This document shows positions 890 to 51,870 of a stretch of DNA of 64,000 nucleotides, piece after piece (the stretch's first letter is position 1; each line of letters begins with the position of its first letter). The notes below the pieces were generated by a model. It had not been told where the DNA came from, searched no databases, and worked only from the letters and a program-made list of their open reading frames with translations. Origin of the DNA: Christensenellales bacterium (lineage in GTDB: Bacteria; Bacillota; Clostridia; Christensenellales; JBMNTT01). Both the position numbers and the translations under genes were made by a program. The DNA lies in NCBI GenBank assembly GCA_050945875.1, contig JBMNTT010000003.1:47133-111132 (forward strand). The letters are read 5' to 3'.

Positions 890-2092
890 TCACAGCTTGC
901 GCTGCGCCCTTCGCCGCTCCACCCAGCCCTCCTTGACGCTCTCACGGCTGCGGGCGATGCACAGCGCGCCTGCGGGCACATCCCGGGTGACCGTGGAGCC
1001 CGCCGCCAGATATGCGCCCTCGCCGATGTGTACCGGTGCGACCAAGTTAACGTTGCAGCCGATGAAAGCGTGGTCGCCCACCCGGCTGCGGGCTTTGTTT
1101 TTGCCGTCATAGTTGACGAACACCACGCCGCAGCCCAGGTTGATGCCCTCGCCCAGGTCGGCGTCGCCCACATAGGTCAGATGGGATACCTTGGTGCCGT
1201 CGCCGATGGTGGCATTCTTGATCTCCACGAAGTCGCCGATGCGGCAGCCCTGACCCACCCGTGCGTTCGGCCGCAGGTAGGCGTTGGGGCCGACGGTGGT
1301 GCCTTCGCCCACGCAGGCCTGGATGAGCGTGGAGCTCTGCAGGTGCGCCCGATTGTCGATGCGGCTGTCGGTGATGTGGTTGTTGACCTCGAGCAGGCAT
1401 CCCTCGCCGACGATCGTACTCCCCTCCAGGTAATTGCCCGGGTAGATCACCGTGTCCTGACCGATGGTTACCCCGCGGTCAATGTAGGTGTGGGTCGGAT
1501 CGATCAGGGTGACGCCCTGCTCCATCCAGTGGCGATTGATGCGTTCGCGCATGGCCATGGCGGCCGCGGCCAGCCCCACCCGATCCTCCACCACCAACCG
1601 CTCCTGAGGCGGCAGGGAGATCACGCCCCGGGGACGGCCCGCGCTCAGGGCCTCGAACAGCTCGGTTAGGCTGCCCAGCCGCCTGCCGGCGAGCAGCTCG
1701 GCCTTGACCGCCAGCAGGTGCACCCCGCCTTGGGCATCGTCCAGGGCGCCCACCGCCCACCGCTCTTGCTCCGCCGCCTGCAGCAACTGATCGACGCTCG
1801 CCGCCGTGATCAAGGGCGCCTGATCCGAGGCCAGGATGGCCCAACCGCCCTGGTCCGCCAGCATTTCCAGCACGCCGTCCACGCCCACCAACAGCCGCTG
1901 ACCCAAGGGCTCGAAGGCCTCCGCGCAGCCCTCGGGGACCACCACCGCCAATTGTTCATCCACATGCCGCAGGGCCTCGACCGCATAGCGCGCCATCGGC
2001 CAGCCGCAGATGGGGTGCATGCCCCGGGGCAGTTTGCTCTTCATCGCCTGGCCCACCTGGTGGGACAGGATCCGCACATGATAGCCGTTCAT
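890..2092 (-). CDS. glmU: GlmU-like bifunctional protein: intact GlcN-1-P acetyltransferase (left-handed beta-helix) half, degenerate N-terminal uridyltransferase half
   Basis: The C-terminal half reads ...SHLTYVGDADLGEGINLGCGVVFVNYDGKNKARSRVGDHAFIGCNVNLVAPV..., typical of GlmU. The N-terminus has MKSKLPRGMHPICGWPM but lacks the LAAGxGTRM signature. A strong AAGGAGG RBS is present, and the gene sits just downstream of purR as in Bacillus. Confidence 0.8.
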   Translation of the reverse strand: MNGYHVRILSHQVGQAMKSKLPRGMHPICGWPMARYAVEALRHVDEQLAVVVPEGCAEAFEPLGQRLLVGVDGVLEMLADQGGWAILASDQAPLITAASVDQLLQAAEQERWAVGALDDAQGGVHLLAVKAELLAGRRLGSLTELFEALSAGRPRGVISLPPQERLVVEDRVGLAAAAMAMRERINRHWMEQGVTLIDPTHTYIDRGVTIGQDTVIYPGNYLEGSTIVGEGCLLEVNNHITDSRIDNRAHLQSSTLIQACVGEGTTVGPNAYLRPNARVGQGCRIGDFVEIKNATIGDGTKVSHLTYVGDADLGEGINLGCGVVFVNYDGKNKARSRVGDHAFIGCNVNLVAPVHIGEGAYLAAGSTVTRDVPAGALCIARSRESVKEGWVERRRAQRKL

Positions 2093-5478: not shown

Positions 5479-6834
5479 TTATTTCTGTTCCTTCCCCTTC
5501 GCGTCGGGCTCGGGCTCGGGCGTCGGGGCTTTTTTGTGGATGCCGACCTTGGTGACCTTCCGGCCGTCGTTCTCCAGCACGGTGAGCACATAGTCGCCCA
5601 CCTGCAGGGTAACCTGCTCGCCGGGACCAGGGATGCGCCCCAGCCGGTCGACGATCAGCCCGCCCAAGGTCTCATAATCCTCCCCCTCAAACACATCGCT
5701 ATCCAGGGTTTCGGATACATCATCGATGGGCACCGTGCCGTCAAAGACATATGCGCCGTCAGGCAGGGCGGTGATCTCCTCGGGCTCGTCGTCGTACTCG
5801 TCCTCAATGTCGCCGACGATGTCCTCCACCAGGTCCTCCATGGTGATCAGCCCGTCGGTGCCGCCGTACTCGTCCACCACGATGGCCATGTGGGTCTTCT
5901 GGGCCTTAAACTCCTTGAGCAGCTGGGTACACTTCTTGGCGCCCGGCACAAACATCGGTCGGCGCATCAGGTCCTTCAGGGCGATGTCCTCGGGCGCATC
6001 GTCCTCCACATAGCGCAGCAGGTCCTTGACGTAGACGATCCCCACGATGTCGTCAATGGTCTCCCGATAGATTGGGATGCGGGAGTATCCCTCCTGCAGG
6101 GCGATGTTGATGACCTCCTGGATGGGCTCATCCTCCTCCAGGGCGGTGATGTCGGTCCGGTGGGTCATGATCTCACTGACCCGGCGATCATCGAAGGCGA
6201 ATACATTGCGGATCATGTCGTTCTCCTCGGGCTCGAAAACCCCGCGCTCCTCCCCCGCCTCGAGCATCATGAGGATTTCTTCCTCGCTGACCTGTTCCTG
6301 CTCTTCCTTGGCGCTGATGCCGAAGAGCTTGAGCACCAGGTTGGTGCTGGCAGCCAGAAAGCGCACGAAGGGCTTGCATACCACGGCCACCGCGTTGACG
6401 ATCCCCACAACCCGAAGGGACATGCTGTCGGCGTAGCGCATGGCGATGCGCTTGGGCACCAGTTCGCCGAACACCAGGGTGAAATAGGAGAGCAGCAGCG
6501 TGATGACCACCAGGATGATGGTGCCCAGCACATTGGGACTGATGGGCAGAAAAGCCAGCTGTTCCACCAGGATGCTGGTGAACTTATCCGCCGCCACAGC
6601 CGACGCAAAGAAACCCGACAGCGTGACGCCCACCTGGATTGTCGCCAAAAAATCGCTGGGCGAATCGGTGATCTTCAGCAGCAGCCGCGCCTTTTTGTTG
6701 CCCTCCTCGCTGAGTTTTCGCATTTTGTTGCTGTTGATGGAGATGATGGCAATCTCGCTCATGGCGAAAAAGGCGTTGATCAGGATCAGCAACACCAGGA
6801 GCAACAGATTGCCAATAACACCGCTTGTGTCCAT
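5479..6834 (-). CDS. CNNM/CorC-type transporter (DUF21 membrane domain, CBS pair, CorC_HlyC domain; 'hemolysin family protein')
   Basis: The 451-aa protein has N-terminal TM helices, a CBS region ([11 protein letters not shown]...), and a C-terminal acidic/CorC-like part. Confidence 0.8.
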
Positions 6835-6877
6835 ACAGATTTCGACTCCTTCGACGTTTTAGATTGAGGACGGGGAA

Positions 6878-6935
6878 CAAAAAACGGATGCAATCAAAGC
6901 GCGCCGGCCTCAGGCCAACCGCTCGATCGCATCCG
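6878..6935 (-). terminator. strong intrinsic terminator inside the CNNM leader, only 44 nt upstream of the CNNM ATG
   Basis: On the minus-strand RNA, CGGAUGCGAUCGAGCG pairs with CGCUUUGAUUGCAUCCG (including 3 G-U pairs) and is followed by UUUUUUGUU. Confidence 0.75.
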
Positions 6936-7124
6936 ATTCTGTTTCCACGAGGGGACATAGGTAAACAAGCCACCGATACCGGCTCCGCAGGGCGCAGAAC
7001 CCATTGAGAAGGCACGGGCAACCCAAAAGACCTGACCATGGCTCATCGAGCCCTGGATACTTCGTTCAGGTACGGGGCTGTCTTCCACCGAATCCACCAT
7101 CGCTTTCCACTATATATGCTATGT
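6936..7124 (-). promoter_or_regulatory. structured 5' leader (candidate riboswitch or attenuator aptamer region, class not recognised)
   Basis: The region lies between a good promoter and the leader terminator. It contains several local hairpins, for example CCAGGGCUC-GAU-GAGCCAUGG. No promoter fits between the terminator and the ATG. Confidence 0.4.
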
Positions 7125-7153
7125 AGTATACCAGATACTCGGGATTTATGCAA
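7125..7153 (-). promoter_or_regulatory. sigmaA-type promoter TTGCAT-17-TATACT for the CNNM leader
   Basis: Hexamers were read on the minus strand immediately downstream of the activase stop codon (7161). Confidence 0.55.
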
Positions 7154-7160
7154 GCTCGCC

Positions 7161-8006
7161 TCACAACACACACACATCGATCCCCCGCTGGATGAAGGGG
7201 CCTTGATAGACCTGTACATCCCGGGCAGTGTCAAAGTCCGGCCGGTAGTCGAGGCCCACCATGGCGTATTTGGCCCCAGCGGTGCGGTGGTAGGGCAGCA
7301 GCTCCACCCGCTGGAGGCGTCTCGCTCCCTTTAGACGCTCGGCCAGGGGCTCCAAATGCGCCAGGTTGTCGTTGATCCCCGGAATCAGAGGCACCCGGAT
7401 GACAAAGGGCGTATTGCCCCGGCACAGGCACTCCAAGTGCCGCAGGATCGGCGCGTTGTCCACCCCCGTGTAGCGCCGGTGCAGCGCAGGGTCGATGAGC
7501 TTGACATCCATCATGACCAGGTCCACCGTGTCCATCATCTCGGCGAAAGCTGCGTCCGGGCAGTAACCCGAGGTCTCGATGGCGGTGTGCAGCCCGTCCA
7601 GGCAGGCGATGGCCGCTCGGACCCCCTCCCACTGTCCCATGGGCTCCCCGCCGGAGAAGGTCACGCCTCCACCGCTGGCGCACAGCAGATCCTCCCCGCG
7701 CAACAGTTCCCGCGCTAAGTCCTCAGCCGCCCAGGCCGTGCCGGCGATGCGGCGCAGCCCCTGGGGACAGGCCGACACGCAGGCCCCACAGGCGATGCAG
7801 GAATCGTGGGTGCAGACCTGCCGACAGCGGCCGCAGTGGGTGCAGGCGCTGGGGCTGACCATCAACTGCGGGGCGAAGGACAACCCCTCGGGGTTGTGGC
7901 ACCACTGGCAGCGCAGGGGGCAGCCCTTGAGGAACACCGTGGTGCGGATGCCCGGCCCATCGAACAGCGCAAACTCCTTGATATCGAACACCAGCAGCTT
8001 GGCCAT
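7161..8006 (-). CDS. glycyl-radical enzyme activating enzyme (radical SAM, with ferredoxin-like Cys-rich insert)
   Basis: The sequence MAKLLVFDIKEFALFDGPGIRTTVFLKGCPLRCQWCHNPEG carries the CX3CX2C motif, followed by CTHCGRCRQVC...CIACGACVSACP. The gene starts 12 nt downstream of the GRE gene. Confidence 0.9.
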   Translation of the reverse strand: MAKLLVFDIKEFALFDGPGIRTTVFLKGCPLRCQWCHNPEGLSFAPQLMVSPSACTHCGRCRQVCTHDSCIACGACVSACPQGLRRIAGTAWAAEDLARELLRGEDLLCASGGGVTFSGGEPMGQWEGVRAAIACLDGLHTAIETSGYCPDAAFAEMMDTVDLVMMDVKLIDPALHRRYTGVDNAPILRHLECLCRGNTPFVIRVPLIPGINDNLAHLEPLAERLKGARRLQRVELLPYHRTAGAKYAMVGLDYRPDFDTARDVQVYQGPFIQRGIDVCVL

Positions 8007-8018
8007 ATCACTACCCCC

Positions 8019-10085
8019 TTACGCCAGATTGAGCTCCGCCCGGGCGATGATATGATCCTGATAATCCTTGTCCAGCTCGACGAAATAGCCGCTCCACCCC
8101 CACACCCGCACAATCAGGTTGCGATGGTTCTCCGGATGCTGCTGAGCGTCGAGCAGGCGGTCGCGATTGACGGTGTTGAGCTGCAGCTGGTGGCCGCCCA
8201 GGGCAATGAAATACTGTACCAGGGCGGCTACTTTGGCGATGGCCTCCTCCCCCCGAAACACCGAGTCGTGGAACTCCAGCGTCAGCGGTCCGCCGTTGAT
8301 GGTCTTGCCCAGGTCGGCTTTGGTGAAGGAGCGCATCACCGACACCGGGCCCTTCAAGCGGGTGTGCAGGCTGGGGGCATAGTTGGCCGGCAGTGGGTCC
8401 TGAGCGCAGCGACCGTCGGCGGTGGCCCCGGTCTGGCGGGCATGCCACAGGTAGAACATCGCCGAGCCCGTGCCTGCGCGGTAGACGCCCCCGCGCTCGT
8501 TGCGCCGCCCGGCCAGGCACTGGGCGAAGGTCTCCAGCAGCCACACCGCATACCCGTCGGGGCTGGGCTCGTCGTTGCCCATCTTCGGGCATTCATAGCG
8601 CAGATACTGCATCAGCGCCTCCTGGCCGGCAAAGTTCTCGGCCACCGCGCCGGTCAGCTGTACGCCGGTGACCTTGCCCTCGGTGAAGACCGCCCGCTCC
8701 ATGGCCGCCAGGGAATCCGCCGCCGTGGCCAGGCCGGTTCCGTGCAGGCCGTAGTTGTTGTATCGGCTGCCCAGGCTGATATCGCGGGCGCGCGCCACGC
8801 AGCCCTCGAAGAGCAGGCTCATGAATGGCGAGGGGACGATATAGAGGTCGGCGAAGGAGGCCGTCAGCGCATCGACCTGGCGATCCACCGCGCGGCGCGC
8901 CGCCTCAAGCACCGGGCCCATGTCCGCCGCGCCAGGCAGGGCCTCGCGCATGGCCGCGTCCACCGCCCCGGCGAAGCTGACCGCGCCGATGTTGGGGATG
9001 TCCATGCCCACGCCGGGGATGATGAACTCCCAGCAGGCGGCCACCACATAGTCCCGCGCGTCCTCCAGGGCATAACCCAGCTTCACCAGCGCGGGGATGA
9101 CCACGTCGTCGTTGGCGTACTGGGGAAAGCCCAGGCCTAGCTTGGTCAGCTGGGTGCCCAACTCGTAAACCGCCAGAGGCGTCCGGGCGCTGACCCGCAG
9201 GTTGATCTTCGGGTCGATCAGGCGCAACTCCCCGCAGGCCTCAAGGCACATGCGCGAGAGCGGGTTGAAGGCTTCCTCCCCCCGGCGGTTCACGCCGCCG
9301 AGCACCACGCTCTGGCCGTTATCGCCCTGCTGGATACCGGGGTAGAGGTCGCTGTCTCGGTTGCAGGCCAGGAAGAACTCCTCCAGCAGCTCCATCGCCT
9401 GTTCCTCGTTCAGCCGGCCCGCAGCCAGGTCCGCCTCAAGGTAGGGCCAAAGCAACTGGTCCAGCCGGCCCAGGGTGTTGTGGTAGTTGCCCTCGCACCA
9501 CAGGGCGTAATGGATGAACCGCAGCGACTGCAGGGCGTCAGCAAAGGTGCGTGCGCCCTGGGCGGGCACCCGCTCCAGCCGCCGGGCGATCTCCTCCCGC
9601 CCCTCGGCCCGAGCCTGGGCGGCATAGCGGGCCGCCAGGTTCAGCACCGCGCGGGTGCTCTGAGCCATGGCGGCCAGATAGTCGGCCTGGGGCTGTTGAT
9701 CGGCCTGGAGATAGCGCGCCCGGGCGGTCTCCACCTCCCTCAGCCGGGCAGTTAGCCCTCTGGCGATGGTGGTGCCGTAGTCCGGGGAGATATTGCAGAC
9801 CACGCCGTTCTCATGGATAAAATGTTCCCTACGGATATCTTCCCAGGCGGCCTCATCATAGATACTGGGCAGGTTGGGCACCGTGCGGGTCAGCACGATG
9901 CGCTCCTCGGGCAGCAGCACCGGCTGCTCCAGCTCCAGAGCCAGGCGGAAGCGCTGGGCGGTGCGCCAGTAATCCGGCAGGTTCCCGACGCGGTAAGGCC
10001 AATCCCCTTCGGGCAGGGACTGGCGGTGAACATGATGCTGCTTTTCGAGCAGACGCTGGCGCATGCGGGCAATCCGATCGGTCAT
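8019..10085 (-). CDS. glycyl-radical enzyme, PFL2/1,2-eliminase-like, unusually short (688 aa), substrate unknown
   Basis: The C-terminus carries NLIVRVWGWSGYFVELDKDYQDHIIARAE (glycine-radical motif). A Cys loop (EDARDYVVAACWEFIIPG) aligns to EDARDYGIIGCVEP of B12-independent glycerol dehydratase. The ATG overlaps the upstream stop codon (ATGA) and is preceded by a GGAGGG RBS. Confidence 0.85.
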   Translation of the reverse strand: MTDRIARMRQRLLEKQHHVHRQSLPEGDWPYRVGNLPDYWRTAQRFRLALELEQPVLLPEERIVLTRTVPNLPSIYDEAAWEDIRREHFIHENGVVCNISPDYGTTIARGLTARLREVETARARYLQADQQPQADYLAAMAQSTRAVLNLAARYAAQARAEGREEIARRLERVPAQGARTFADALQSLRFIHYALWCEGNYHNTLGRLDQLLWPYLEADLAAGRLNEEQAMELLEEFFLACNRDSDLYPGIQQGDNGQSVVLGGVNRRGEEAFNPLSRMCLEACGELRLIDPKINLRVSARTPLAVYELGTQLTKLGLGFPQYANDDVVIPALVKLGYALEDARDYVVAACWEFIIPGVGMDIPNIGAVSFAGAVDAAMREALPGAADMGPVLEAARRAVDRQVDALTASFADLYIVPSPFMSLLFEGCVARARDISLGSRYNNYGLHGTGLATAADSLAAMERAVFTEGKVTGVQLTGAVAENFAGQEALMQYLRYECPKMGNDEPSPDGYAVWLLETFAQCLAGRRNERGGVYRAGTGSAMFYLWHARQTGATADGRCAQDPLPANYAPSLHTRLKGPVSVMRSFTKADLGKTINGGPLTLEFHDSVFRGEEAIAKVAALVQYFIALGGHQLQLNTVNRDRLLDAQQHPENHRNLIVRVWGWSGYFVELDKDYQDHIIARAELNLA

Positions 10086-11575
10086 GTGCGTTCCCTCCTG
10101 ATGACAATGGCCGCCACGCTGGCAGCAGGCAGGTCAATCACGTCCCCGCCGGTGAAGGTTTGGGTCACCTGCTGCGGACAGACGCGATCGGGGTACTCGA
10201 ACGTGTTGTGGTCATGGGGATCGCCGGTGAGCAGGGTCAGCGTTCCATCTCCCTGCAGGGAACCGCCGAAGGCCGACAGCTGTACCTGCATCCCCTGGTC
10301 AAACTGGGTGTTGGCCAAAGTGATGGTCACCAGATTCTCTCGCTGGGAGGCCGAGACCGATAGGTTGGGCAGCCCCTCCGGCCCTCGGCAGGCGGCATCG
10401 GTGGCTACGGCGATCTGCCGCGCGCCCTGGTGCGTCTTGAACAAATCAAAAATATGGTAGGTCGGCGTCAGGATCAGATGCTCCCCGCCCGCCAGGAACA
10501 GGCAGTGCAGATTGTTGCACAGTTGGGCAACATTGGCCATACGCACCACATCGCACCGGTTGTTGAAGATATTCAGCGTCAGGGCCGAGACCATAGCGTC
10601 GCGCAAGGTGCTCTGCTGTTCAAAGAGGTTGTAGCCCTTGGATGGGCCGGAGCCATCGGGATGCCAGCAACCCCACTCATCCACCACCAGCCCGATTCGC
10701 CGCTCCGGGTCATAGGCGTCCATAGCCGCCCGATGGGCATCGATCAATCCCTGCATGCGAAAAGCCTGATAGAGCTGTTGATCCCACTGATCGGCGGTGA
10801 ACCCGGTCACATCGCCTGCGGCGCCGCAGTAGTAGTGCAGGCTCAGGCCCCAGAGCTCGGCATTGCGCCCAAAGTGGATGTTGCCATACTCCCGCATGAA
10901 ACCCTGGGTCCAGGCCAGATCGTCGGCGTTAGGGCCGCAGGCGATGAAGCGGTATCTCCCCTCGTCCAGATCATTGACCACCGTGGCGTAGCGGATGAAC
11001 TCCCGGGCGTACATCTCGGGGCTCATCTGCCCGCCCCCACCCTAGTTTTCATTGCCGATGCCCCAGTAGCGCACGCCAAAGGGTTCGGGATCGCCATTGC
11101 GCTCCCGCTCCCGGGCCAAGGTGGTGCTGCCTCGGGGGAAGTTGCAGTACTCAACCCAATTGCGGATGTGCAGGGCGGGCACGGTGGTCACATTGGCCGC
11201 CACATAAGGTTCAGCTCCTGTCATGCGGCAAAAATCCATAAACTCATGGGTGCCCACCTGGTTGGATTCGGTGCGTCCGTCCCGACAGTACCACCAGTTG
11301 ACTCGGGTTGGCCGGTCAGCCTCTGGGCCGATGCCGTCGCGCCAGTCGTAGGTTTCGGCAAAGCAGCCGCCCGGCCAGCGCAGCACCGGCGGCTCGATGC
11401 GCCGAAAAGCCTCCACCAGCGCCTTGCGAAAGCCCCGCACGTTCTCCACCGGGGAATCCTCGCCCACGTACAGCCCGTCGTAGAACACCCCGCCGATGTG
11501 TTCGGCAAAATGCCCGTATATATCCCGGGCAATTTCGCCCCGGGACTGGGGAAAGAGCAGACAGACCTGCGGCAT
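10082..11575 (-). pseudogene. abfA: GH51 alpha-L-arabinofuranosidase interrupted by one in-frame TAG (codon at 11042..11044)
   Basis: ORFs 11042..11599 and 10082..11026 are in the same frame. The junction reads ...YWGIGNEN*GGGGQMSPEMYA... The acid/base GNE motif is in the N-terminal fragment and the nucleophile LVVDEWGCW is in the C-terminal fragment. The likely start is MPQVCLLFPQ (11575), which has a GGAGGGG RBS. Confidence 0.8.
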
Positions 11576-11602
11576 ATGCACCCCTCCATATTCCAACATG
11601 AT

Positions 11603-12832: not shown

Positions 12833-12980
12833 GGATCTTATCCAGAGAGGCGGAGGGACTTGGCCCGATGAAGCCTCGGCAACCATCCGCAAGGAACTGG
12901 TGCCCCTTCCAGCAAGCCCCGGCTTGGCAGATAAGAGCAGCGCGATCCCCATGCCTCCCCTGCCAGCGGGAGGTTTTTTT
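12833..12980 (+). ncRNA. SAM-I (S-box) riboswitch with terminator
   Basis: The sequence UCUUAUCCAGAGAGGCGGAGGGACUUGGCCCGAUGAAGCCUCGGCAACC...GGUGCCCCUUCCAGCAAG...CAGAUAAGA matches the S-box core and its P1 pairing. The terminator CCUCCC-(8 nt)-GGGAGG plus U7 lies at 12954..12980. Confidence 0.85.
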
Positions 12981-51526: not shown

Positions 51527-51870
51527 CAGATGAGGCGGGCCTATAAGCCGAGTTCTGTCGAGAGTGGCCATCTATCTAGGCCGACGGTTGCCAGTCGGCT
51601 CCAGCGATTACACGGGACGTGACGGGCCGCCACATGTGTCCCGATATCAATCTTGCACCAGGTGGGGTTTACAGAGCGGACAAGTCGCCAAGCCGCTGGT
51701 GAGCTCTTACCTCGCCTTTCCATCCTTACGGCGCAAGCGCCGCGGTTTCTTTCTGTTGCACTTTCCTTGGAGTCGCCTCCACTGGGAGTTACCCAGCACC
51801 CTGCCCTATGGAGCTCGGACTTTCCTCGTCCCCTCGCGGGGCCGCGGCCACTCAGCCCGCTCATCCTGTC
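51527..51870 (-). ncRNA. rnpB: RNase P RNA (bacterial; the core resembles the type A architecture)
   Basis: The minus strand contains GAGGAAAGUCCGAGCUCCAUAGGGCAGGGUGCUGGGUAAC...GUGCAACAGAAAG...GGUAAGAGCUCACCAGC...GUAAACCCCACCUGGUGCAAG...CCUAGAUAGAUGG...ACAGAACUCGGCUUAUAG. P1 pairs GGAUGAGCGGGC with GCCCGCCUCAUC. The ends are accurate to about 5 nt. Confidence 0.92.

Follow-up and report, generated by a model that had tools for sequence, protein, structure and literature searches.

Organization of the locus

In this work we analyzed the leader of a gene that encodes a transporter of the CNNM/CorC family, located in a stretch of 64,000 nucleotides (nt) of a Christensenellales bacterium (contig JBMNTT010000003.1, positions 47,133 to 111,132); this whole stretch is hereafter called the window. 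The product has 451 amino acids (aa) and carries the domains PF01595 (CNNM, E = 1e-50), PF00571 (CBS, 5e-16) and PF03471 (CorC_HlyC, 2e-23); by this domain make-up it is predicted to be a CNNM/CorB-type cation exporter, the putative substrate being Mg2+, another cation or a polyamine. The gene lies downstream of the radical-SAM activase gene of a glycyl-radical-enzyme operon, and the region between both contains a promoter and an upstream open reading frame (ORF), here termed uORF, that runs into an intrinsic terminator. This architecture may be that of a leader-peptide transcription attenuator. The features, with the basis of each assignment, are the following:

5479..6834, minus strand: CNNM/CBS/CorC_HlyC transporter gene, 451 aa (Pfam)
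6846..6852, minus strand: ribosome-binding site GAAGGAG of the CNNM gene (sequence reading)
6876..6884, minus strand: U-tract UUUUUUGUU (sequence reading and RNAfold)
6885..6935, minus strand: terminator stem-loop of 23 base pairs with two bulges and the loop UGA (RNAfold)
6894..7088, minus strand: uORF with a GTG start, 64 codons, stop TGA at 6896..6894 (ORF list, start chosen by homology)
7065..7085, minus strand: acidic/proline motif E-D-S-P-V-P-E, codons 2-8 of the uORF (translation)
7089..7108, minus strand: ribosome-binding region of the uORF, GGAAAGCGATGGTGGATTCG (likeness to loci L163 and L042)
7125..7133, minus strand: extended -10 element TGgTATACT (sequence reading)
7148..7153, minus strand: -35-like hexamer TTGCAT, which begins 8 nt past the activase stop (sequence reading)
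7161..8006, minus strand: radical-SAM activase gene (Pfam)

The activase gene ends with a TGA codon read at 7163..7161. Downstream of it, the hexamer TTGCAT is separated by a 17-nt spacer from TATACT (7130..7125), the TG of a TGn extended -10 is found at 7133..7132, and the predicted transcription start is near 7120..7118. The initial annotation of this DNA, a reading of the sequence alone, had placed a good promoter directly after the activase stop; its position and sequence are as described there, whereas its strength was overestimated, given that the -35 hexamer matches the consensus TTGACA at only three of six positions, which also accounts for the absence of this promoter from the output of a consensus scanner. 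The very stable terminator reported in that annotation was recovered, with a stem at 6935..6885 of about -37 kcal/mol (-36.2 to -37.8 kcal/mol by RNAfold) and a U-tract at 6884..6876. So was the GAAGGAG site in a gap too short for another promoter: approximately 41 nt separate the U-tract from the ATG of the CNNM gene, read at 6834, and neither the consensus scanner nor reading of the sequence revealed a promoter-like site in this interval. A simple pattern scanner did not list the hairpin, which is attributed to the two bulges of the stem. The terminator is located 226 nt past the activase stop. As an antiterminator helix against its 5' arm, a complement of just 7 nt (GCUCGAU) was seen by eye, and this candidate was discarded as unconvincing.

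The feature that had been overlooked is the ORF of the leader (7100/7088..6894), which traverses the 5' arm and the loop of the terminator and has its stop codon (6896..6894) within the 3' arm. The GTG at 7088, approximately 30 nt after the predicted transcription start, was taken as the start codon because GTG begins five of the six uORFs of the class described below; ATG is the start listed for nearly all of the 52 CNNM genes that bear the acidic/proline motif themselves. An in-frame ATG at 7100 would lengthen the uORF by four codons (7100..6894, 68 aa), and a gene of 68 aa was predicted by the gene caller for this uORF on L162, a second contig of the same species. The gene caller also predicted an ORF of 71 aa at the matching place in L163, the closest relative, whose leader has 27% GC. 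The ribosome-binding region of the window uORF resembles that of L163 (TAAAGGATGGTTTTAAAAA-GTG) and also those found before complete CNNM genes, for instance L042 (GAAAGGATGGTATCCTCATA-ATG). The window peptide begins M-E-D-S-P-V-P-E, and the ORFs of both the window and L163 contain GTG-GAA-GAC, read as V-E-D-S-P-V-P-E in the first and V-E-D-P-G-S-G in the second. No match to the uORF peptide was found in Pfam.

The leader unit in other CNNM loci

Scans of genomes and metagenomes yielded 160 orthologous CNNM loci whose proteins are 45-57% identical to that of the window. In a search of 5.8 billion proteins the nearest CNNM protein outside the species was 56% identical, and this search together with the scans returned nothing between that value and the organism itself; in two other contigs of the same species the leader differs from that of the window by one base. 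A first crude terminator scan of all the upstream regions was too noisy, and instead we searched 124 non-redundant CNNM loci for upstream ORFs that span 8 codons or more, have an acidic/proline start and are followed by an intrinsic terminator before the CNNM start. Six loci matched (the window, L163, L164, L053, L006 and L012), and the reverse-complement controls gave zero matches. Further searches, with P0002 and P0023 as seeds, contributed L164 alone. The unit common to these loci begins with a promoter, continues with a short ORF whose first codons specify the acidic/proline motif, and ends in a terminator, which this ORF adjoins or runs into. Its members are listed below; the terminator-to-CNNM distances were taken from reference points that differ slightly between loci.

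Window: uORF of 64 codons beginning MEDSPVPE; stop in the 3' arm; hairpin of -36 to -38 kcal/mol; CNNM start ~41 nt past the U-tract
L163: 71 codons, MEDPGSG; reads through the whole hairpin (-13.6 kcal/mol, then U8GU6); ~135 nt, by eye
L164: 14 codons, MEEGPGRE; stop at the base of the stem; -15 to -17 kcal/mol; ~28 nt past the U-tract
L053: 10 codons, MEKDPAGK; stop 13 nt before the stem; -16.7 kcal/mol; ~40 nt
L012: 26 codons, MDDTPEPGP; stop inside the 5' arm; -33 kcal/mol; 104 nt past the stem
L006: 25 codons, MDDTPEPGP; stop inside the 5' arm, with an insertion of 110 nt between the arms; 91 nt past the stem

The insertion of L006 (2246..2332, ~110 nt) is structured, with three small hairpins, and is placed in the loop of the terminator that this locus has in common with L012.

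The genes upstream of the unit vary from locus to locus: in L163 the upstream gene is divergent, and in L164 it encodes an SLH-domain protein and has, by eye, a terminator-like hairpin of its own. Since the upstream genes differ, the terminator can be assigned to the CNNM leader. Promoters were recognized at the corresponding relative place in L163 (11 of 12 consensus matches, with TG), L012 (10 of 12, with TG) and L006, and the uORF of L053 is preceded by TTGCAT-17-TAAAAT, with a -35 hexamer identical to that of the window. In L164 no promoter was seen directly 5' of the uORF, and the region has no Rfam match. Strong promoter-like sites occur farther upstream in this locus (TTGTCA-17-TATAAT near 1545 and TTGACA-17-TATAAT near 1613); about 240 nt (within 1545..1884) lie between them and the uORF start at 1885, and an extra element upstream of the uORF is possible there.

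Four other CNNM genes with short N-termini were considered as further members and rejected: in P0086 and P0122 the gene is joined directly to a two-component operon, P0046 follows secDF at a distance of 77 nt, and P0123 is preceded by an AT-rich spacer that holds neither a uORF nor a terminator. In L165 and L169 (623..1200) the CNNM start is 5 nt past a response-regulator gene, itself behind a histidine-kinase gene, so that the transporter is apparently under a two-component system rather than under a leader.

L014 (2795..2940) is a close relative of L163, with a CNNM protein 70% identical and a homologous terminator of -19.8 kcal/mol. Its acidic/proline ORF has shrunk to ATG-AGC-TGA, while a remnant of the initiation region, AAAGGATG, has been kept; this suggests a member of the class in decay.

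Conserved parts of the leader

Local alignment against shuffled sequences showed that significant similarity between the window leader and those of other loci is limited to two parts. The first comprises the ribosome-binding region of the uORF and its first ~8 codons. When this part was compared with L012/L006 (GTGGACGACACCCCTGAACCTG) the score was 35, against 14.1 +/- 2.8 for shuffles, and the comparison with L163 gave P = 0.046. Between L006 and L012, whose CNNM proteins are 81% identical, DNA identity reaches 100% in the promoter, the Shine-Dalgarno sequence and uORF codons 1-10; the two terminator arms are also common to both, and the middle of the uORF has diverged. In general, uORF length ranges from 10 to 71 codons and only the start is conserved: the pattern (M/V)-(E/D)-(D/E/K)-x-P-x-(P/G) is present in all six uORFs and the remainder is variable.

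The second conserved part extends from the 3' arm of the terminator to the ribosome-binding site of the CNNM gene, and in it the window resembles L164 (P = 0.003). By eye, nine stem pairs correspond between these two loci, and A-U pairs of L164 appear as G-U pairs in the window. A MAFFT alignment of the terminators was abandoned, as it was confounded by the additional GC-rich apical helix of the window, and pairwise local alignment with shuffles was used in its place. Between the start of the uORF and the terminator lies a segment of ~30 to 150 nt, which could not be aligned among the six members.

The CNNM protein of L163 has as its best match, after those of L014, L164 and L053 (69-71% identity), the protein of the window, which fits a common origin of the leader. 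The sequence FW(W)VA..MG, found at equal spacing in the window and L163 peptides, was not counted as evidence: BLASTP gives just E = 0.10, and in L163 this stretch forms the terminator's 5' arm. A weak 'LLNGFCAL' match in another frame had suggested that the leader might derive from duplication and decay of the 5' end of the gene; this was rejected, since alignment of the leader with its own gene scored no better than with shuffles (P = 0.998; for L163, P = 0.10).

The acidic/proline motif in the transporter proteins

Most of the CNNM proteins of the group begin themselves with an acidic/proline sequence, namely MDDPDPG, MDDPGPG, MPPEPDG, MDPDG or MPDPDG. Among 93 orthologues from dereplicated loci, 65 have at least three D, E or P in residues 2-7 and 31 have at least four. 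In contrast, all six genes preceded by a uORF have at most two in these positions of the transporter (MDTSGV, MEDSGV, MSIGT, MSV(I/L)PS); the window transporter, which begins MDTSGV, lacks the motif. As a working cut-off for the peptides we used four D, E or P in the six residues after the initiator, a value that its source defined for internal DE/P segments; N-terminal sequences are described there merely as 'enriched' in D, E and P (bioRxiv 10.1101/2021.02.02.429294). The uORFs of L006 and L012 have five of six, that of the window four, and those of L163, L164 and L053 three. Taken together, the evidence points to a relationship between the putative sensor motif of the leader peptide and the N-terminal motif of the transporter.

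The CNNM genes of the MDDPxPG type (~50 loci, for instance L042 2910..2940, L067, L069 and L126) have a stereotyped initiation region, TTGAAAGGAG - 4-6 nt - (A/T)TCC - 3-5 nt - ATGGATGACCC, and the codons of their motif are strongly conserved too. Base pairing between the GGA of the Shine-Dalgarno sequence and the TCC that follows it is conceivable, a hint that a small hairpin may occlude this site.

Proposed mechanism

The sequence of this region holds three elements expected of a leader-peptide attenuator: a leader ORF with a putative ribosome-binding site, a terminator that overlaps it and a conserved peptide start. With moderate confidence, we propose that the leader acts as a ribosome-mediated (leader-peptide) transcription attenuator. 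Transcription would initiate from the extended -10 promoter, and read-through from the glycyl-radical-enzyme operon could contribute as well. A ribosome translating the uORF close behind RNA polymerase would cover the 5' arm of the terminator at the time when the U-tract is made; with this arm covered the hairpin would not form, and the polymerase would proceed into the CNNM gene, which starts 41 nt farther on. Should translation abort or stall at the early acidic/proline codons, the RNA would be left bare, the hairpin would form and transcription would terminate.

The signal could be provided by the peptide itself, given that an N-terminal peptide rich in D, E and P would destabilise the ribosome, more so at low Mg2+, an effect known from MgtL as intrinsic ribosome destabilisation; this is the least certain step, and sensing of Mg2+ through ribosome destabilisation is put forward tentatively, as possible rather than probable. 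At high free Mg2+, or with a polycation, the uORF would be completed and the exporter would be ON, whereas at low Mg2+ it would be OFF. Completion of the uORF as the ON state has a sign that is physiologically sensible for an exporter, which would be made when the cation is high. A cation-responsive ON switch is thus plausible from this analysis, operating through the ribosome rather than through an RNA aptamer. Where the motif is in the N-terminus of the transporter, as in most orthologues, the same logic would apply directly to its translation.

The presence of one acidic/proline peptide both at the start of most Clostridial CNNM proteins and in a detached leader wired to a terminator points to a translation-based sensing of cations. 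It is possible, if doubtful, that in Clostridia the ribosome itself is the cation sensor for CNNM exporters by means of an MDDPDPG-like N-terminal peptide that would make early elongation dependent on free Mg2+ or polycations. This peptide would be used in two interchangeable ways: built into the transporter, as in the majority of lineages, or detached as a GTG-initiated leader with an intrinsic terminator, as in the window and its five relatives.

Several observations weigh against the attenuator and the sensing proposed for it. The class is small, as it comprises 6 of the 124 loci and three lineages; L014 retains the terminator and has lost the motif, and the four other CNNM genes with short N-termini are arranged otherwise. 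Translation of the uORF is, for every member, deduced from sequence. In the window, the ribosome-binding site of the uORF is weak (GGAAAG/GGTGGA, with a GTG start) and an open frame of 64 codons is ordinary for this GC content (P = 0.11); chance alone would seldom give a frame as long as that of L163 (P = 0.004), part of which, however, falls within the U-rich sequence of the terminator. The similarity of these two long peptides past the N-terminus is not significant (E = 0.10). The peptides of L163, L164 and L053 fall under the four-of-six window set for internal DE/P segments, and those of L164 and L053 have K or R among residues 2-8. A steric block by the ribosome would work poorly in L053, where the stop codon precedes the stem by 13 nt, and in L006, where the arms are 110 nt apart. 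Transcription and translation are reportedly poorly coupled in Bacillus subtilis. Finally, the acidic N-terminal tail of the transporter could serve membrane topology (N-terminus outside) and not regulation.

Alternative explanations

The main rival to an attenuator is that the hairpin is the ordinary terminator of the glycyl-radical-enzyme and activase genes, the uORF a decaying relic devoid of function, and the CNNM gene expressed either through leakage at the terminator or from a promoter that has escaped recognition. In agreement with this idea, the interval from the activase stop (7161) to the hairpin contains no further terminator, the -35 is poor and the promoter was not listed by the scanner, the open frame of the window is statistically ordinary, and in L014 a homologous terminator that has lost the uORF motif lies behind a co-directional gene. 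Against it, the hairpin is found 226 nt past the activase stop, the gap between the U-tract and the ATG holds no promoter-like site that fits, and L163, L164, L053 and L012 have promoters of their own and unrelated or divergent upstream genes. In addition, among loci with proteins that are just 54-57% identical, no part of the leader is better conserved than the beginning of the uORF, and a neutral relic would not show such conservation. We hold this explanation to be unlikely. The same comparison bears on the initial annotation, which had stated that expression of the transporter must depend on read-through of the terminator and that this would fail if the hairpin merely ended the glycyl-radical-enzyme operon and the CNNM gene were transcribed from elsewhere. 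Homologous leaders with their own promoters follow unrelated genes in L163, L164, L053, L012 and L006, which argues that the hairpin is not merely the end of that operon and supports the dependence on read-through.

A trans-acting factor, such as an antiterminator protein, a small RNA or NusA/NusG, might govern the read-through, with the uORF as an incidental feature. In the window and L164 the terminator and its 3' flank are indeed conserved (P = 0.003), and since no obvious antiterminator helix was seen by eye in the leader, an external factor could be needed. Nonetheless, the six leaders have no common RNA motif beyond the uORF start and the terminator, no conserved regulator gene adjoins the loci, and the constant abutment of an acidic/proline ORF and a terminator would be left unexplained; this alternative seems to us quite unlikely.

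The initial annotation favoured an unrecognised riboswitch, that is, an undescribed metabolite or ion aptamer with the terminator as expression platform. The succession of promoter, ~180 nt, terminator and gene is compatible with it, and a cation exporter would be a sensible target. The leader had accordingly been called structured, a description that the folding does not bear out: the part that precedes the terminator (7118..6936, 183 nt) has a folding energy of -62.4 kcal/mol, its dinucleotide shuffles give -59.8 +/- 4.6 (z = -0.57), and the z = -2.4 obtained for the full leader of 290 nt is explained by the contribution of the terminator. As the initial annotation had noted for several known riboswitch classes, no family was recognized: the region 6780..7220 of the window has no match in Rfam 15, whose models include M-box, yybP-ykoY, NiCo, T-box and Mg_sensor, even at E<=10, 13 orthologous loci have none at gathering thresholds, and nothing was detected at E<=1 inside the leaders of the five other leader-bearing loci and L014. 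In a comparison of the 326-nt leader with the first 80 orthologue loci, blastn and nhmmer gave chance matches alone. The conservation that had been proposed as a check on the upstream regions does not extend to any structured part of the leader in other genomes, and no conserved structured aptamer was found 5' of the terminator. In the absence of a family match, of excess structure and of conservation in the variable segment between the uORF start and the terminator, a riboswitch is very unlikely, and of the layouts contemplated in that annotation (riboswitch, T-box or leader-peptide attenuator) it is the leader-peptide attenuator that fits. Before the promoter, leader and terminator of an ion transporter are filed as an orphan riboswitch, small ORFs should be checked.

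In the whole window, just two Rfam matches reach the gathering score, both outside this leader: a SAM riboswitch at 12835..12937 (plus strand, 86 bits) and a bacterial RNase P RNA class A at 51528..51863 (minus strand, 271 bits).

That the ORF encodes a functional small protein of 64-68 aa with its own promoter and terminator, unrelated to the control of the CNNM gene, is highly improbable because its counterparts range from 10 to 71 codons with just the first ~8 residues in common, and in addition it has no Pfam match and the rest of the L163 peptide is encoded by the U-rich terminator region, even if the gene caller listed it on L162 and, as 71 aa, in L163, where the frame is open beyond chance.

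Neighbouring genes

Just upstream of the glycyl-radical-enzyme gene there are two head-to-tail ORFs on the minus strand, at 10082..11026 and 11042..11599. In the first of these, of 314 aa, Pfam detected only a C-terminal domain of alpha-L-arabinofuranosidase, and it shares 4 nt with the beginning of the glycyl-radical-enzyme ORF. The combined length of both ORFs is about that of one alpha-L-arabinofuranosidase, and the gene may have been split by a frameshift or an assembly error.

Comparison with known systems

In the literature searched, no description of a leader of this kind was found for CNNM genes. Several known systems share one or more of its properties. The M-box (ykoK) also exerts a Mg2+-dependent control through an intrinsic terminator located before Mg2+ transport genes of Firmicutes; in contrast with the system proposed here, sensing is by an RNA aptamer, high Mg2+ turns the importers OFF, and the window has no match to its Rfam model. 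In the pyrBI attenuator of E. coli the leader ORF spans the terminator hairpin, and a ribosome that follows the polymerase closely prevents the hairpin from forming. This masking of the terminator by a translating ribosome is the principle that we propose for the window; the signals are different, since for pyrBI it is the UTP-dependent pausing of the polymerase in U-rich tracts and here it would presumably be the passage of the ribosome through the first codons. A uORF-dependent control in Firmicutes is also exemplified by ribosome-stalling leader peptides of antibiotic-resistance genes, such as the tylosin-dependent leader (PMC6851288). Leaders of this group depend on drug-stalled ribosomes and alternative RNA helices, and their peptide motifs are unrelated.

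For the CorC family itself, it has been proposed that YbeX/CorC of E. coli is regulated by Mg2+ through the abortion of translation, in a survey where ten genes of 4,187 ORFs had N-termini enriched in D, E and P (bioRxiv 10.1101/2021.02.02.429294). The acidic N-terminus of this protein, MSDDNSHSSDT, lowers downstream translation, and its expression was proposed to rise with Mg2+; the equivalent place in most of the CNNM orthologues is occupied by sequences such as MDDPDPG or MPPEPDG. The window differs in that its motif is absent from the transporter and is located on a separate upstream ORF with a terminator, and also in that YbeX is a soluble CBS-CorC protein whereas the gene product studied here is a CNNM membrane protein. 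In Salmonella, corC and mgpA are induced by high Mg2+, a regulation that was described as unclear (PMC12421838).

The closest parallel is the mgtL leader of mgtA in Salmonella and E. coli, a short ORF that precedes a Mg2+ transporter gene and has an acidic/proline start, MEPDPT. MgtL aborts translation within its first six residues, more frequently at low Mg2+, and N-terminal DE/P-rich sequences of other E. coli genes abort likewise within the first 6-10 residues (bioRxiv 10.1101/2021.02.02.429294). As we propose for the window, the ribosome aborts more often when Mg2+ is low, and what becomes of it determines whether the transporter gene is transcribed; the resemblance in sequence between mgtL and the window uORF is one of composition only. 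The wiring differs, given that mgtA encodes an importer, is turned ON by abortion and uses alternative stem-loops and Rho-dependent termination, whereas here the gene is of the exporter type, the uORF runs into an intrinsic terminator and its completion would be the ON state. If the ribosome is indeed the sensor, this leader would be the mirror image of MgtL-mgtA, devoted to efflux.

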